Shown here piece after piece: positions 1-29,704 of a stretch of 64,000 nucleotides of DNA (its first letter is position 1; each line of letters starts with the position of its first letter). The stretch lies in sequence record OR539220.1; one strand, given 5' to 3'. Origin of the DNA: Escherichia phage vB-Eco-KMB40. A program made the position numbers and the translations under genes. The notes beneath the pieces are model-generated. The model was not told where the DNA came from. It ran no database searches and worked only from the letters and a program-made list of their open reading frames with translations.

Positions 1-729
1 TTTATCTTTATTATCCCAATGATAGCCTTTTCGTCGAGATGCTATATGAGCTTTTCTAATCTCCGGATTTTTCCAACTAGCAGCTACTGAATTTGATATA
101 GCTATTTTATATTCAGGTTTTGATAAAGCAGCACGAACAGCCTTTTGGTGTTTAATTTTATTTTCTTCGTTATTAAACCATTCCCTTGAAGCCATTGAAA
201 TTTTTTGTTTTGTTTTAAAATTATTTAATCTTTCTTTGTTATCTTTCCTATTTTTTGCTACTGAAAAATATTTTAATGCCCTTTCTCTAGCAGCATTTCT
301 ATTTTGCGGATTTGAATAATACTGTTGAAGTCTTTTTGATATTGTGTCACTTACATCTTGTTTTATAAAACTATACTCAGCAGCTATTAAATCAACTTCG
401 GCTAAAGATAAATTTTTATATGTTTTTCCTGACATCATTCTATTTAAAGCATTTAGCATTTTTCCATTTTTACCTTTTGCTAATAAGAAATGTGCTTTAA
501 AATGATTAAAATGACTTAAATTAACTAAATTCCATGTAGATTTTAAATATTCAGGAAATATTGATTTAGGAAGCACGTGGTGTGCTTCCGTTTTACCTGG
601 AGTTTTAACAGTTGAATTCATAGAAATAAAATTAATGTAAGACTTGGCGTCTTCTTCACTCAACGCTAATTTTTCAACTAATTCCTTTATTAAAAATTCA
701 TCATTAATGTCAAGTTTAAAATTCTTCAC
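1..729 (-). CDS. HNH-family homing endonuclease (Mob-like), N-terminal 243 codons; C-terminus lies beyond window start
   Basis: Frame open from 729 to 1 with no stop (absent from ORF track because truncated by window edge); GTG start preceded by AAGGAA; translation contains HNH core EAHHVLPKS...NLVNLSHFNHFKAH followed by basic NUMOD-like repeats. Confidence 0.55.
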   Translation of the reverse strand, partial: MKNFKLDINDEFLIKELVEKLALSEEDAKSYINFISMNSTVKTPGKTEAHHVLPKSIFPEYLKSTWNLVNLSHFNHFKAHFLLAKGKNGKMLNALNRMMSGKTYKNLSLAEVDLIAAEYSFIKQDVSDTISKRLQQYYSNPQNRNAARERALKYFSVAKNRKDNKERLNNFKTKQKISMASREWFNNEENKIKHQKAVRAALSKPEYKIAISNSVAASWKNPEIRKAHIASRRKGYHWDNKDK

Positions 730-989
730 AAAAGATTCCTTTTAATGTATCTTTTAGACCATTCTATCATATCATCATAATCTAAAAAGTATTCATCAAA
801 TTCAGCCATGCAAACAACACCTTGTGCTGCTTTTGATGTGATATAAATTATTCCAACATATCTAGAATCTTCTTCGGTATAATCAATATTTGCTATGAAT
901 TCATCATTAATGTCAAATGTCGAAAACTTCACAGTATGCATCCTTAATACAAGATACAGCCATATCTCGTAATGATTTAGGTGTGTCAT
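726..989 (-). CDS. hypothetical ORF (87 aa); partly duplicates the 5' end of the HNH gene; coding status uncertain
   Basis: ORF track; peptide VKFSTFDINDEF resembles HNH N-terminus VKNFKLDINDEF; its stop TGA overlaps the HNH GTG start; overlaps 913..1176 in another frame. Confidence 0.25.
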   Translation of the reverse strand: MTHLNHYEIWLYLVLRMHTVKFSTFDINDEFIANIDYTEEDSRYVGIIYITSKAAQGVVCMAEFDEYFLDYDDMIEWSKRYIKRNLL

Positions 990-1176
990 TATCTAAAATG
1001 TTGAAGTTAAAAGATACAGCCCAGTCAGTGCAGACTGTAACCTTTTTAATACAATTATCTTCAACCTCTAACGGTTCAAACCAATATTCAATAATTTCTT
1101 TATGCCCAATATCATCTTTTACTTCACATTCAAAATGCTGACTCATCATAACATTTTTAAATTCATCAAAAGTCAT
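913..1176 (-). CDS. hypothetical small protein (87 aa)
   Basis: ORF track; start overlaps gene 47 stop (ATGA coupling). Confidence 0.5.
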   Translation of the reverse strand: MTFDEFKNVMMSQHFECEVKDDIGHKEIIEYWFEPLEVEDNCIKKVTVCTDWAVSFNFNILDNDTPKSLRDMAVSCIKDAYCEVFDI

Positions 1177-2192
1177 TGTGTTGCCTCTACATATAGCTGA
1201 TTTGCATATTGAATAAGTGCTTCGCGATCAGAATCAGTGATGTCTGGAATTGCATTAATGTATTCTTCCATCAACGTCTGAAGAGATTGAACTTCAACTT
1301 CTTCACTGTCATCTGACTCGACAGAGTTATCAATCTTTGACACAACTCGTAATGAATGCACAACTTTCTCTAGTTCAGATTCGAACTTCGTCAGATTTTT
1401 GTCTACTTCAGTTACTATAACACGTACTGATAGATTTGTAAAATCTTTATAGTCAATTTTTCCTTTAAATGGATAATGAATTCTACGATGCCAGGTAGTG
1501 TTGTTTGGAATAAATTCCATTCGTTCTGTTTCTGTATCAAACATCCAGAACCCACGAGGGTCATTCTCGTCACCGGCAGTTAGTGTCCATGGTGTCCCAA
1601 TATATCTGACGTTAGCAGCCTCAGAGATAGTATGGAAGTGACCAGACCACACCTCTTTATAAGTCTTAAGGAAATCAGGTTCAAGACCGTGAGATTTCAT
1701 TCCTTTATAAAAATAAAATCCATTCAGTTCCCAGTGACCAACACAAAAAGAAGCAGATGAAGTTTTGATGTGCTCAAGAATTTCACCAGTATTTTCTTCA
1801 CACATCCAAGGAATTAAATCAATTAAACATCCGTCAAAATCTACTGTAGTAGGCTTATCATATACTTTAACATTAGGATATTTAGCCAAAAGCTCAGTAG
1901 AGGCATTTGGAGTTAAAGTATTTTTAAAGTGCATATCATGGTTTCCTACAACAGTATGTAGGGTAATACCAGCATCATCAAGCATTTGAACTATTTCACG
2001 AGCGAACTCCATAGTTTTATGCGTGATTGCTTTTCGCACATCAAAAATATCGCCGTATTGAATCCATGTAGTAATTCCATTTTTCTTAGAATATTCTATT
2101 GCTTGTTTAATTCCATCCAACTGAATGGATTGAACCCACTCATCATCGGCTTTAACGCCTAAATGCCAATCACCTAAATTTAAAATTTTCAT
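1173..2192 (-). CDS. 47: recombination exonuclease subunit gp47 (Mre11/SbcD-like phosphoesterase)
   Basis: 339 aa; calcineurin-like phosphoesterase motifs (GDWHLG, GDIFD, GNHD, GHWE); length and N-terminus as in T4 gp47. Confidence 0.9.
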   Translation of the reverse strand: MKILNLGDWHLGVKADDEWVQSIQLDGIKQAIEYSKKNGITTWIQYGDIFDVRKAITHKTMEFAREIVQMLDDAGITLHTVVGNHDMHFKNTLTPNASTELLAKYPNVKVYDKPTTVDFDGCLIDLIPWMCEENTGEILEHIKTSSASFCVGHWELNGFYFYKGMKSHGLEPDFLKTYKEVWSGHFHTISEAANVRYIGTPWTLTAGDENDPRGFWMFDTETERMEFIPNNTTWHRRIHYPFKGKIDYKDFTNLSVRVIVTEVDKNLTKFESELEKVVHSLRVVSKIDNSVESDDSEEVEVQSLQTLMEEYINAIPDITDSDREALIQYANQLYVEATQ

Positions 2193-2353: not shown

Positions 2354-2369
2354 AAGGGCCGAAGCCCTT
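2354..2369 (-). terminator. GC hairpin with TTCG loop (AAGGGC-TTCG-GCCCTT on minus strand) followed by U-rich tract
   Basis: Perfect inverted repeat at 3' end of a-gt, before gene 47. Confidence 0.4.
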
Positions 2370-3571
2370 TATTTTGTAATAATGTCAAACTGTTCTTTAA
2401 AGCAGAAGCTTGAATCTTGATGCTGATACAAAAATTCATAAGCTTTTTCGCGTTCGCGGTCATAAAGAGTTCGGTCAGATGACAGTTCTTTAATACGTTC
2501 AAATGTTGATTCCATGTCATTTTCATCAAACCAAATGATACCGCTATCATGCGAGGTCAAAGGAGTATTATCAACACGGAATTTTAAATTTTCGCCAGTA
2601 GATTTCCAAAATACCGGAATTGTTCCACATGCACCAAGCTCGAGATGAGTATATTCTAAAGAACGTTGTAGATATTTTTTATCCAACTTACTCAACTGAT
2701 AACCAAAACCGGATTTACTCATACGTTCAAGCATTTCGCTATTTACATAACGGTCAAGAATTTGCGTTGGCAAATTAGGAGCAATTTTAATTTGGTCTAC
2801 TTGATGAAGACGATAATACTCGTATGGAATTCCTTTTTCTTTAATAGGAATGAACGCTGGAGAACGTTCCAGACCTTCCATAATAGTACTTAGTCCTGCA
2901 GGTTTAAGATGTTTTTCATGAAAATCAAACATCTGATAAAAACCTTTCCATGTGGTCGTACGACCAATCCAACGGTTGATATTCATGTTAATTTCAGAAA
3001 CATCTTTCCAGTAGGTTGACCGAACCTTCGCAATATCCATAGGAGGCTGAAAGTTATATACTGTCGGTGCTTCTTCAATATCATCAAACAGAGAAACTGT
3101 TTCAGGATACCATTCTTTCATCAGAACTTTATTAAAATCACCATTATCAGAATGGCTAAAAATAACATCAGCTCGACGAACAGTTTCTTCTAATCCCAAA
3201 TTTCGACGCAAAGAAAGAGAAGAATGGTCATGTTGATAAACTACAACACGAACAGAAGGTTTAATGTTATCAATAATTTTTTTATAGTTATTAATAGTGT
3301 CTTCTTCAACCGAAGTAGCAGGAACTGAATTGATAATTAGAATATCACAATCATTTACCAGCTTAAGTGTTTTATCATATTCTTTTGCCAATAAAACCGG
3401 AATTGAAAATGATTTATAATCATGCGCGCAATTACGAGTAAATGATTTATCTTTAGCATAAACCAAAGTTACTTCATGACCATTCTTAATAAACCAATCA
3501 CGTTGCTCAAGAGAAAATTTAGTTACACCACAACCTTCAAGACCTCGAGCCATAAAAATACATACTTTCAT
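2369..3571 (-). CDS. a-gt: DNA alpha-glucosyltransferase (glucosylation of hydroxymethyl-cytosine DNA)
   Basis: 400 aa; N-terminus MKVCIFMARGLEGCGVTKFSLEQ and length match T4 alpha-gt as recalled; position between 47 and 55. Confidence 0.85.
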   Translation of the reverse strand: MKVCIFMARGLEGCGVTKFSLEQRDWFIKNGHEVTLVYAKDKSFTRNCAHDYKSFSIPVLLAKEYDKTLKLVNDCDILIINSVPATSVEEDTINNYKKIIDNIKPSVRVVVYQHDHSSLSLRRNLGLEETVRRADVIFSHSDNGDFNKVLMKEWYPETVSLFDDIEEAPTVYNFQPPMDIAKVRSTYWKDVSEINMNINRWIGRTTTWKGFYQMFDFHEKHLKPAGLSTIMEGLERSPAFIPIKEKGIPYEYYRLHQVDQIKIAPNLPTQILDRYVNSEMLERMSKSGFGYQLSKLDKKYLQRSLEYTHLELGACGTIPVFWKSTGENLKFRVDNTPLTSHDSGIIWFDENDMESTFERIKELSSDRTLYDREREKAYEFLYQHQDSSFCFKEQFDIITK

Positions 3572-3622: not shown

Positions 3623-3640
3623 TAGGAGCCGAAGCTCCTA
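3623..3640 (-). terminator. terminator-like hairpin (TAGGAGC-TTCG-GCTCCTA on minus strand)
   Basis: Perfect inverted repeat upstream of a-gt; U-rich tract follows after a few nt. Confidence 0.35.
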
Positions 3641-3829
3641 TCCACATAATACGCCATACAGAGGCTCGTTAGAACTTTTAAATTTTATGCGCTTATATTT
3701 TATAGTTCCTTCTGCTTTAGCTTTATCATGAGACTCTTTAAAGCGTCTCATCATTTCCTCTTGAGAGGAACGAATTTTATTATAATCTATTTCAGAAGTC
3801 TGGTGTTCATCTTTCATAACTGCCACCAT
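3638..3829 (-). CDS. hypothetical small protein (63 aa)
   Basis: ORF track; member of overlapping minus-strand gene chain between 55 and a-gt. Confidence 0.4.
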   Translation of the reverse strand: MVAVMKDEHQTSEIDYNKIRSSQEEMMRRFKESHDKAKAEGTIKYKRIKFKSSNEPLYGVLCG

Positions 3830-4304: not shown

Positions 4305-4523
4305 TTATTTCTCTAATATAAAATAAAAATCATCATCTGTTAAATGATACCGATAGTTTAATTCTACACCATTAGATTTAAAAGCGGTATCATACGGATT
4401 TTCTGGATCAATATCAATGTCAAGAGCTAAAACTTCCCTGAGATACATTTTAAGTAAATAGGGAATAGCTTCAACTTCAGGTATTTCTTCCAAGAATCCG
4501 GAGAGGTTAATCGTTAGCCTCAT
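4305..4523 (-). CDS. hypothetical small protein (72 aa)
   Basis: ORF track; directly downstream of gene 55. Confidence 0.45.
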
Positions 4524-5064
4524 ATAAAAAATCCAAACTAGGAGAATCGTCTACAACACTTTTCTTTTCAGCCCCCGGTGTTCTATAGGTTGATTCTTCG
4601 TAATGCGTCATTTTATCGTAGATGTCTTGAATAAAAGTTTCATCTACTAACGCAACCATATCGTCGTCACGACTGTCATAGACATTGTGAACGAAGTAAC
4701 TATATTTCTTTGCAACTTCCTTACGTTCTTTTTTAATACGTTGGACGAATGCATTAAAACAAGCTTGAGTTATATACGCATGTGGGTTTTTATATTTCGT
4801 TTCATCAAAATTATGAAGCCCCTTAATAGAAGCTTCTATACCATCTGCAATCATTTCTTGTTTCCAAGACTGGGTGTATCCTGAAAAGTTGAAACGTTTA
4901 GATAAGCCTTCTGCAATAAGCATAATGGCTAATCCGATAGTATCATTCTGACGAACTACTTTATTTGGGTCTTTATTATTTGCTAATTCTGTTTTCCAAT
5001 CAATAATAGCCTGTAAAAGCTCTTTATTGTTTACGTAATTATATTTAGGCTTAGTTTCTGACAT
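4507..5064 (-). CDS. 55: late-transcription sigma factor gp55
   Basis: 185 aa from ATG at 5064 (track start is an upstream GTG); GAGGTG SD; length and position as T4 gp55. Confidence 0.85.
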
Positions 5065-29230: not shown

Positions 29231-29704
29231 TTATTTGAACGATTTAACGTACTGAATAGAACCTTTACTATTTACAAAGGCAATTTTACCATTTTTATTA
29301 TACATGGTAGCAGTACGTTGATAACCATAAGTTTGTTTACCAGATTGATAACCAACTAATGCGAAATTATCTTCGCCCATTTTATTCTGTTTAGCGCGAA
29401 TGCGTTCATGACCATGTGCCATAAGAACCTTAGCATCACCGGTTGCAATGGATCGACGAGTTTTTTCATCTTCAACTGTATTAACAAAGTCGTCAAATGA
29501 ATCAAATTTAGCATGTGATTTATTATACAGTTTTCCATCTACTGCATAATTATATCCCTGTACATCCATCTCAACTTCTGTACCATCATCCAATACAGCA
29601 GTGATTTTTTGACCTTTTTTAAATTTCAAAAGATCAGTAAAAGATTCAGCAATAATTTGAGAATTAATAGCTGCTTCAGTGATAAATTCTTGATATGTTT
29701 TCAT
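29231..29704 (-). CDS. internal-protein-like head protein with capsid-targeting N-terminus (157 aa)
   Basis: N-terminus MKTYQEFITE matches T4 IP capsid-targeting consensus MKTYQEFIAE; basic mature part. Confidence 0.6.
   Translation of the reverse strand: MKTYQEFITEAAINSQIIAESFTDLLKFKKGQKITAVLDDGTEVEMDVQGYNYAVDGKLYNKSHAKFDSFDDFVNTVEDEKTRRSIATGDAKVLMAHGHERIRAKQNKMGEDNFALVGYQSGKQTYGYQRTATMYNKNGKIAFVNSKGSIQYVKSFK

Follow-up and report, generated by a model that had tools for sequence, protein, structure and literature searches.

At the left end of a 64,000-nucleotide stretch of Escherichia phage vB-Eco-KMB40 (OR539220.1), referred to here as the window, an open reading frame (ORF) runs from position 729 to the window edge. 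As a whole this frame, positions 1-729, is best explained as a free-standing homing endonuclease gene (HEG) of the T4 Mob family, which is of the HNH type, that lies directly upstream of gene 46 and would spread by homing; we put the probability of this reading at about 0.85. The same gene is found in T6, and it is called the T6-type HEG below to separate it from its relatives at the same site in other lineages. It is an ordinary kind of element and not a new kind of system.

The encoded protein

The frame lies on the minus strand, is open over 243 codons and encodes ...GKTEAHHVLPKSIFPEY...WNLVNLSHFNHFKAH..., which agrees with an initial annotation of the window that had read an HNH core here; the remaining 41 codons fall beyond the left window edge. 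The GTG start overlapping an upstream stop, also proposed in that annotation, is present as well, with the start at 729-727 and the TGA of gene 46.1 at 728-726 read together as TTGTGA. The features of the gene are as follows.

1..729, minus strand: Mob-family HNH HEG ORF, first 243 of 284 codons (PHROG 655 at 3.2e-45; 30% identity to T4 MobD)
726..729, minus strand: GTGA overlap of the HEG GTG start (729-727) and the 46.1 TGA stop (728-726); the same GTG starts gene 46 in T4
490..588, minus strand: HNH (His-Me finger) core, residues 48-80 (13-member alignment, AlphaFold model, sub-threshold McrA/Cas8f motif alignment)
25..315, minus strand: basic helical repeat region, residues ~139-235, presumed DNA-binding as in MobD (four NP(E/Q)..(R/K) repeats; low model confidence)

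The protein is filed as a Mob-family HNH homing endonuclease because of its homology and its motif. PHROG 655 ("homing endonuclease") covers residues 1-282 at 3.2e-45 and an HNH PHROG matches at 1e-15, whilst in tblastn residues 47-281 are 30% identical to T4 MobD (4e-11) and HEGs annotated as mobE in other phages match at 26-28% identity; the family as a whole comprises 967 cluster representatives at E <= 1e-3. In a 13-member family alignment H50, H51, P54, N67, L71, H76 and H80 are invariant, the His and Asn residues forming an HH..N..H..H motif, of which the window copy holds all the catalytic residues (H50, H51, N67, H76 and H80). An AlphaFold model built from a 7-sequence alignment has a confident N-terminal domain with a strand at 48-51, a strand at 68-71 and a helix at 73-84 around the motif, and a profile search of the PDB aligned the motif to the HNH domains of McrA and Cas8f at E ~0.7 only, which is not significant. 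PF07460 is present in the distant relative P0042. The basic repeats first described as NUMOD-like are there, as four NP(E/Q)..(R/K) repeats of the MobD type at residues ~139-235, the NUMOD assignment itself being unconfirmed with no NUMOD match in Pfam. PHROG 655, the similarity to MobD and the HH..N..H..H motif together bear out the earlier proposal of a free-standing HNH-type HEG, and the gene is indeed an ORF between phage genes, not within an intron or intein, that is present or absent at the exact site among close relatives.

T4 MobA-E have been classed as HNH group 1 (PMC5714182). The closest T4 paralogue is MobD, a free-standing HNH HEG between nrdC.11 and mobD.1, the activity of which was given as not determined in a 2010 review (PMC2988022). 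MobD and the T6-type HEG share the HH..N..H..H core, the basic C-terminal repeats, a C-terminal W-x-x-N-(K/R)-P-K..GYP module, the free-standing state and co-orientation with their neighbours. They differ in that MobD has another insertion site, and hence presumably another target, has no borrowed leader of the kind described below and has its catalytic His at residue 31. The experimentally characterised member of the same family is T4 MobE, located between nrdA and nrdB, which experiments showed to be a mobile HEG that lacks a promoter, relies on transcription from upstream and nicks the 5' region of the adjacent nrdB (PMC2790892); such action on the 5' region of a conserved neighbour is the behaviour that is proposed below for gene 46.

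Gene order and insertion upstream of gene 46

The closest match to bases 1-2300 of the window is phage C2-3 at 99.2% (Tequatrovirus, the T-even phages), with T6, RB51, RB68, KIT03, ECML-134 and PP01 at 98-99%. Every gene of the left-edge stretch is on the minus strand in a co-oriented and tightly packed run, transcribed in the order alpha-glucosyltransferase, 47.1, gene 47, 46.2, 46.1 and then the HEG frame.

726..932, minus strand: gene 46.1, DUF5487, 68 aa, GTG start at 932 (Pfam PF17589 at 2.2e-49; annotated alike in T4, T6 and RB51)
913..1176, minus strand: gene 46.2, T4_Y03C family (Pfam PF25721 at 2.6e-43)
1173..2192, minus strand: gene 47, encoding an SbcD/Mre11-like nuclease subunit and standing upstream in the run that contains the HEG
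2369-3571, minus strand: alpha-glucosyltransferase (alpha-gt)

The HEG had been placed next to gene 47; its actual neighbour is gene 46, the product of which is the Rad50/SbcC-like recombination nuclease subunit, and both 46.2 and 46.1 stand between the HEG and gene 47. The overlap that was reported between ORFs 913..1176 and 726..989 does exist, although its 77 nt stem from the choice of the longest ORF and the annotated 46.1 start at 932 reduces it to 20 nt. Elsewhere in this run, T4 mobB, which in T4 lies between alpha-gt and a-gt.2, is missing from the window, where alpha-gt is followed directly by an a-gt.2-like ORF (3638-3829).

In T4 the GTG of gene 46 overlaps the 46.1 stop and the junction reads ...AAAAGGAATCTTTT GTG AAG AAT TTT AAA CTT AAT AGA GTA..., whereas T6, RB51, C2-3 and the window have the same 18 nt followed by GAC ATT AAT GAT GAA TTT... 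and the rest of the HEG. Past the HEG stop, sequences of the C2-3/T6/RB51 type continue with ACAATTGGATACAAA ATG AAA TCA TTT AAA CTT AAT AGA GTA.... Comparison of the two junction types in T4, T6 and RB51 therefore identifies 852 bp that are inserted exactly after codon 6 of gene 46 relative to T4; because the insert sits at this point the HEG takes over the native, stop-overlapping GTG of gene 46, and gene 46 acquires a stand-alone start. This restart, ATG AAA TCA TTT AAA CTT, lies 15 nt past the HEG stop and is served by a new ribosome-binding site of the GGA type. Codons 1-6 of gene 46 thus occur on both sides of the insert as an imperfect 18-nt direct repeat, with one copy at the HEG start and the other past the HEG stop, just outside the window, and on these alignments it is this imperfect duplication that is the true signature of the insertion. 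The region of the HEG stop, TTGTGAAcAATT, also resembles the T4 junction of the 46.1 stop and the gene 46 start, TTGTGAAgAATT. An insertion between genes 46 and 47, as initially suggested, is in keeping with this 852-bp difference from T4, with which the interval is not collinear.

Related elements in other lineages

The closest relative of the T6-type HEG is a "MobD-like" HEG of Mosigvirus (172859UKE1, pEK20, phiEC1 and AV112; 10 of 157 records) that is 45% identical over 258 residues without gaps. Both occupy the slot directly upstream of gene 46, have a borrowed leader and are accompanied by a linked patch of variants in the 5' end of gene 46. The Mosigvirus HEG is unlike the T6-type in that it replaces 46.1, its leader being the first 7 codons of the Mosigvirus 46.1 (MTKTDYE) with the His at residue 46, and in that its 3' end overlaps the start of gene 46 with no spacer. 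A third member of the clade, P0043, comes from a metagenome contig (Logan SRR21022561), is 44% identical (7e-59) and again stands upstream of gene 46, its ..ENI* tail, like that of the Mosigvirus form, overlapping the start of gene 46. Unlike the T6-type it lies directly between genes 47 and 46, in a lineage without 46.2 or 46.1, and its His is at residue 40; it shares with its host only the start codon, a GTG overlapping the gene 47 stop, and therefore shows the leaderless, native N-terminus of the clade.

Across the genera of T4-like phages the interval between genes 47 and 46 is empty or holds 46.1 alone, 46.2 alone, both, or an HEG, and as judged from these arrangements the slot is an indel hot spot with gene gain and loss. 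Where sister genomes differ in the presence of 46.1, the start codon of this gene and the Lys codon after it are also those of gene 46, which then starts anew at an ATGA overlap, so that 46.1 itself would have entered by start capture. The 46.1 family (DUF5487) retains 31-33% identity outside Tequatrovirus. One 46.1 allele, P0034, is a mosaic in which an RB69-type N-terminal half is joined to a T4-type C-terminal half.

Other endonuclease genes also occur near this slot. In two T6-like phages, Citrobacter phage PhiZZ23 (L033, 3670-4293) and vB_Eco_F26, the HEG before gene 46 is accompanied by a second ORF annotated as "HNH endonuclease", which is situated between alpha-gt and gene 47 and overlaps the start of the latter. 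RB51 (L001, 961-1674) has a mobB-like HEG between 45.2 and gene 46 that is encoded on the other strand and is missing from T6, C2-3 and T4, and because of this the RB51 gene 46 has endonuclease genes on both flanks.

The presence of different cassettes in the same intergenic slot of related phages recalls SegH and Hef, which reportedly replace mobC and mobE in T4 relatives (a finding said to be that of Sandegren and colleagues in 2005). There the exchange is between unrelated endonucleases; at the gene 46 slot a single HEG clade alternates with, or is added to, the small non-nuclease gene 46.1.

A leader probably taken from two neighbouring genes

The first 35 nt of the HEG are an exact two-piece mosaic, with nt 1-18 identical to those of gene 46 and nt 19-35 to those of gene 46.1.

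712..729, minus strand: leader segment A, HEG nt 1-18, GTG AAG AAT TTT AAA CTT, equal to T4 gene 46 codons 1-6 (T4/T6/RB51 alignment)
695..711, minus strand: leader segment B, HEG nt 19-35, GAC ATT AAT GAT GAA TT, equal to 46.1 nt 19-35 in register; the similarity ends sharply after this
898..916, no strand assigned: upstream copy of an exact 19-nt repeat, 46.1 codons 6-12 (..F DINDEF), the most likely source of segment B; unchanged in HEG-less T4

That the leader was borrowed by the HEG is argued by the length of its N-terminus, by the sister elements and by the native origin of the 46.1 motif. Amongst 135 family representatives the first catalytic His has a median position of residue 40 (interquartile range 38-43), as against residue 50 here, and the excess N-terminal lengths of 10, 6 and 0 residues in the T6-type, Mosigvirus and P0043 HEGs match leaders of 12, 7 and 1 codons. 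Furthermore the N-terminal motif of 46.1, F-x-[IL]-G-[DN]-G-[WY], is homologous across genera without an HEG, where it reads FNLGNGW, FHIGDGW or FSIGDGY, with FDINDEF in Tequatrovirus. On this comparison the family-native HEG protein starts at about residue 12, and the direction of copying was most likely the reverse of that assumed in the initial annotation, the HEG having taken its leader from 46.1 and gene 46. Borrowing of the first 12 codons from two neighbouring genes therefore accounts for the "duplicate" of the HEG 5' end that was noted there.

It was also considered whether 46.1 could be the decayed relic of an older HEG N-terminus, as a MAFFT alignment pairs DINDEF, sEED..Y and KA-AQGVVCMAEFDEY with KTEAHHVLPKSIFPEY; this was rejected on the 46.1 homologues, 31-33% identical, that have their own conserved motif in other genera.

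Gene 46 as possible landing site and probable target

It is possible, and we put it forward tentatively, that the gene 46 start codon is a reusable landing pad, used by 46.1 and by three lineages of a single HEG clade, each of which captured the resident stop-overlapping start in frame and left gene 46 with a new one. The mosaic leader might then be the fossil of an HEG stepping from 46.1 to gene 46, and the clade may track the conserved 5' end of the Rad50-like gene across genera. Should this be true, the HEG clade follows the very gene whose product would process the breaks that the HEG makes.

Sites that vary amongst the phages were compared on both sides of the insert. To the left, 0 of 50 variable sites in 900 bp track the HEG, which rules out a co-conversion haplotype in this flank. 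In 900 bp to the right the sole HEG-linked difference is at gene 46 +45/+46, where carriers have GGA GTT and T4-type non-carriers GGG ATT (codons 21-22). A T6 junction query is matched at 98.8-100% by 70 carriers, and most of the listed records that lack the HEG have exactly two mismatches to it in its gene 46 portion. For Mosigvirus, a patch over gene 46 codons 12-22 separates the 10 records with the HEG from 115 without it.

The HEG-linked variants in two genera, the precedent of MobE and the fact that three sister HEGs all abut gene 46 are the reasons for proposing a target in the gene 46 5' region, and on balance we favour a site at the 46.1/46 junction or in the opening ~100 nt of gene 46. 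During mixed infection, genomes that lack the HEG would be nicked or cut by the enzyme either at this junction or within the first ~70 nt of the gene, and repair of the break off an HEG-carrying genome would copy the cassette in. Carrier genomes would be protected by their split junction together with the linked change from GGG ATT to GGA GTT at codons 21-22. The mosaic leader may record an earlier location of the HEG inside 46.1, such as the Mosigvirus sister has today, and the HEG could have been moved downstream of an intact 46.1 afterwards, when the leader and gene 46, with their similar 5' ends, recombined in register.

Within the genus the first ~66 nt of gene 46 are unusually polymorphic because a second, RB69-like 5' allele exists, found in the HEG-less Tequatroviruses L009, L010, L013 and L022 (~4464-4530) and reading CTA AAC CGA GTT AGG TAT CAA ... 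GGT GGA AAT CCT ATT. In phage ELT1 (L035, 446-553), which is HEG-less yet has the GGAGTT variant, 46.2 is frameshifted to a 35-aa ORF.

Distribution and decay

The T6-type HEG is present in 70-71 phage records, T6, T2 and RB51 amongst them: 71 of 629 records that match the window query cover the HEG part, and of 144 records matching the junction of the HEG end and gene 46 (T4-type gene 46 5' end) 70 span it fully, i.e. carry the HEG. An exact-match search of the IMG/VR viral contigs for the left junction found nothing, and for this reason the association statistics are drawn from GenBank phage records.

Copies are 98.7-100% identical in DNA across hosts and, among the matches listed, 22 of 27 keep the full 855 nt. 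Two independent frameshifts were observed, a deletion of 1 nt at nt 524 in RB51/RB68 and a deletion of 2 nt at nt 609-610 in T2; the ORF is unannotated in the RefSeq record of RB51 because of the 1-nt loss. The refuting case named in the initial annotation, an interval collinear with T4 and a frame with inactivating features past the window, does not apply: the interval differs from T4 by the insert, all 284 codons are intact in C2-3 and T6, and the window copy, which differs from the intact 284-aa protein of C2-3, and likewise of T6, by 1 residue, is open past both the T2 and the RB51 lesion sites. With independent lesions in some carriers and a possible precise-loss allele in ELT1, the distribution follows the pattern of invasion, decay and loss of the HEG life cycle.

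A search for a natural intermediate allele gave only a 71%-identical match in Enterobacteria phage Ac3 (OK040907), and this candidate was set aside as a codon-recoded, synthetic-looking copy. The Ac3 sequence (OK040907.1; L034, 1150-2120) is an RB51-type HEG pseudogene written in GC-rich synonymous codons (CTG, ATC, AAC and others) at 71.5% DNA identity, keeps the RB51 frameshift and is annotated as a misc_feature; from its sequence it looks to be synthetic or an assembly artefact and not the product of natural divergence.

The HEG is already labelled "homing endonuclease" in several RefSeq records and is otherwise unannotated or "hypothetical" in many T6-, T2- and RB51-like genomes. No description of an HEG at the 46.1/46 site was found in the searched literature, which included the 2010 review of T4 mobile elements (PMC2988022), and the gene appears to be undescribed in the searchable literature.

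Expression

Promoter-like matches near the HEG are not above those in shuffled sequence, with no sigma-70-like signal of its own standing out, and the late-promoter box TATAAATA was not found in positions 1-1300; a promoter belonging to the HEG was rejected on these grounds. A regulatory hairpin over the HEG start was likewise rejected, the fold being no better than shuffles (z = -0.78). The HEG start retains the stop/start overlap with 46.1, of the kind that is linked to translational coupling. From its sequence context the HEG looks like a promoterless cassette that is read through from upstream, with its translation probably coupled to that of 46.1.

A perfect 8-bp hairpin, GGAAGCAC / GTGCTTCC, lies at 569-589 (-13.6 kcal/mol in the sense RNA) exactly over the catalytic codons T-E-A-H-H-V-L-P. 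It has a terminator-like score on the antisense strand and no U-tract on the sense strand, and it is shared by the HEG that Salmonella phage Jbel has at its mobC site and is absent from the Mosigvirus sister, C40, MobD and ZZ1. MobE carries an internal regulatory terminator hairpin (PMC2790892). The two differ in that MobE nicks nrdB and is regulated by its internal terminator hairpin, whilst the target of the T6-type HEG is a predicted one and the hairpin at 569-589 is without a sense-strand U-tract.

Weighing the evidence

Several observations weigh against a mobile Mob-family HEG with a borrowed leader. Pfam gives no HNH or NUMOD match to the HEG protein at E <= 1, nor does NCBIfam, and sequence and profile searches of the PDB with the protein gave no significant match. 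The window copy can be read only to codon 243 of 284, and site-specific nicking or cleavage and homing are predicted activities of the protein. Comparison of T4 with T6 alone gives no polarity, as a deletion between the TTTAAACTT repeats would restore the T4 arrangement, and the structure in ELT1 is exactly what such a deletion would leave. At least two HEG-less phages, ELT1 and CJY920, carry the HEG-type gene 46 variant as a perfect match to the query, and the link between variant and HEG could reflect plain close linkage over 45 nt instead of target immunity. Finally, the HEGs of phages C40 and ZZ1 begin MDIN and BLASTP pairs Met1 of ZZ1 with L6 here, because of which DIN could be native to the HEG.

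The last point can be extended to an account in which DIN(D)E belongs to the HEG, only six codons derive from gene 46, and ectopic gene conversion across 203 bp, from the HEG to 46.1 or both ways, produced the 17-nt identity, with recombination then carrying the converted 46.1 allele into HEG-less phages. Besides the C40 and ZZ1 proteins, which are encoded at other loci, it would suit the existence of another 46.1 allele that reads NLG where DIN would stand and the departure of the Tequatrovirus DIN from the G that is conserved in other 46.1 proteins. We nevertheless regard it as unlikely, if still the strongest of the alternatives, since DIN occurs within the first 8 residues of just 1 of the 135 family representatives, a start at L6 would put the catalytic His at 45 against a family mode of 38-42 and a position of 40 in the closest leaderless sister, and the Mosigvirus sister plainly has 46.1-derived codons. 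Moreover the NLG allele is a mosaic in its own right, its upstream flank being Dhakavirus-like, and BLASTP against C40 picks a different register.

A second alternative is that the ORF has lost its mobility and persists only by linkage to the essential gene 46, whether as a passenger in decay or as a nuclease domesticated, for example, to exclude co-infecting phages or for another role. The frameshifted copies of T2 and RB51/RB68 indicate that the phage does not need the HEG, and identity of 98.7-100% across hosts is compatible with hitch-hiking. Against this stand the large share of full-length copies (the 22 of 27 among the matches listed), the intact catalytic residues of the window copy, and the combination, in two genera, of presence or absence at the exact site with a linked variant in an adjacent conserved gene, which is classically seen with HEGs that are, or recently were, active; exclusion of competitors is, besides, how T4 HEGs act. 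Loss of mobility thus seems improbable.

The repeat upstream of the HEG is real. Positions 686-730 and 889-933, 203 bp apart, are 78% identical over 45 nt, which substantiates the diverged copy ~200 bp upstream that had been reported, and they contain an exact 19-mer core, AATTCATCATTAATGTCAA, at 695-713 and 898-916 that occurs twice in the 64 kb; 0.01 such matches are expected from shuffles, and none of 100 shuffles gave two. The initial annotation took the upstream copy, placed at 886-925 where two ORFs overlap, for a diverged second version of the HEG 5' end, left as a scar by gene conversion or by insertion of the HEG. In favour of this the repeat is far beyond chance, but the copy is the working, coding 5' end of 46.1 (codons 6-12; DUF5487, 2.2e-49), its FDINDEF stretch is base-for-base unchanged in HEG-less T4, ELT1 and other Tequatroviruses, and the motif is homologous to that of 46.1 proteins in genera that have never had an adjacent HEG, because of which we consider a scar highly improbable.

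Chance similarity in AT-rich DNA, helped by a common GTG AAG start that a shared gene 46 type start would account for, can be dismissed given the shuffles and given that in register from the two GTG starts 29 of 36 nt are shared, 19 of them in one unbroken run. Amongst 15,051 in-register pairs of window ORF 5' ends this lies in the extreme tail, and only one other pair, true paralogues amongst the internal-protein genes, reaches this level. Four ORFs starting at 29704, 35187, 38747 and 39108 on the minus strand have near-identical 5' ends, MK(T/S)Y(Q/T)(E/Q)F..., which are presumably the shared capsid-targeting sequence of T-even internal-protein genes.

Significance

The homing endonucleases of T-even phages are a model for selfish nucleases that drive marker exclusion and mosaicism between co-infecting phages. 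To our knowledge most mob genes have no assigned target, and for the T6-type HEG a concrete prediction can be made, namely that gene 46 is nicked or cut within its first ~70 nt and that codons 21-22 set its sensitivity. Natural controls are available in the frameshifted T2 and RB51 copies, in ELT1, which is HEG-less and has the linked gene 46 variant, and in the two sister elements of other lineages. The finding also accounts for a common annotation gap in T6-, T2- and RB51-like genomes. What is instructive in this HEG is its borrowed mosaic leader, the repeated entry at the gene 46 start and a target prediction that can be tested, and it illustrates how a promoterless cassette may enter a packed run of genes with overlapping stops and starts by borrowing a resident start and leader.

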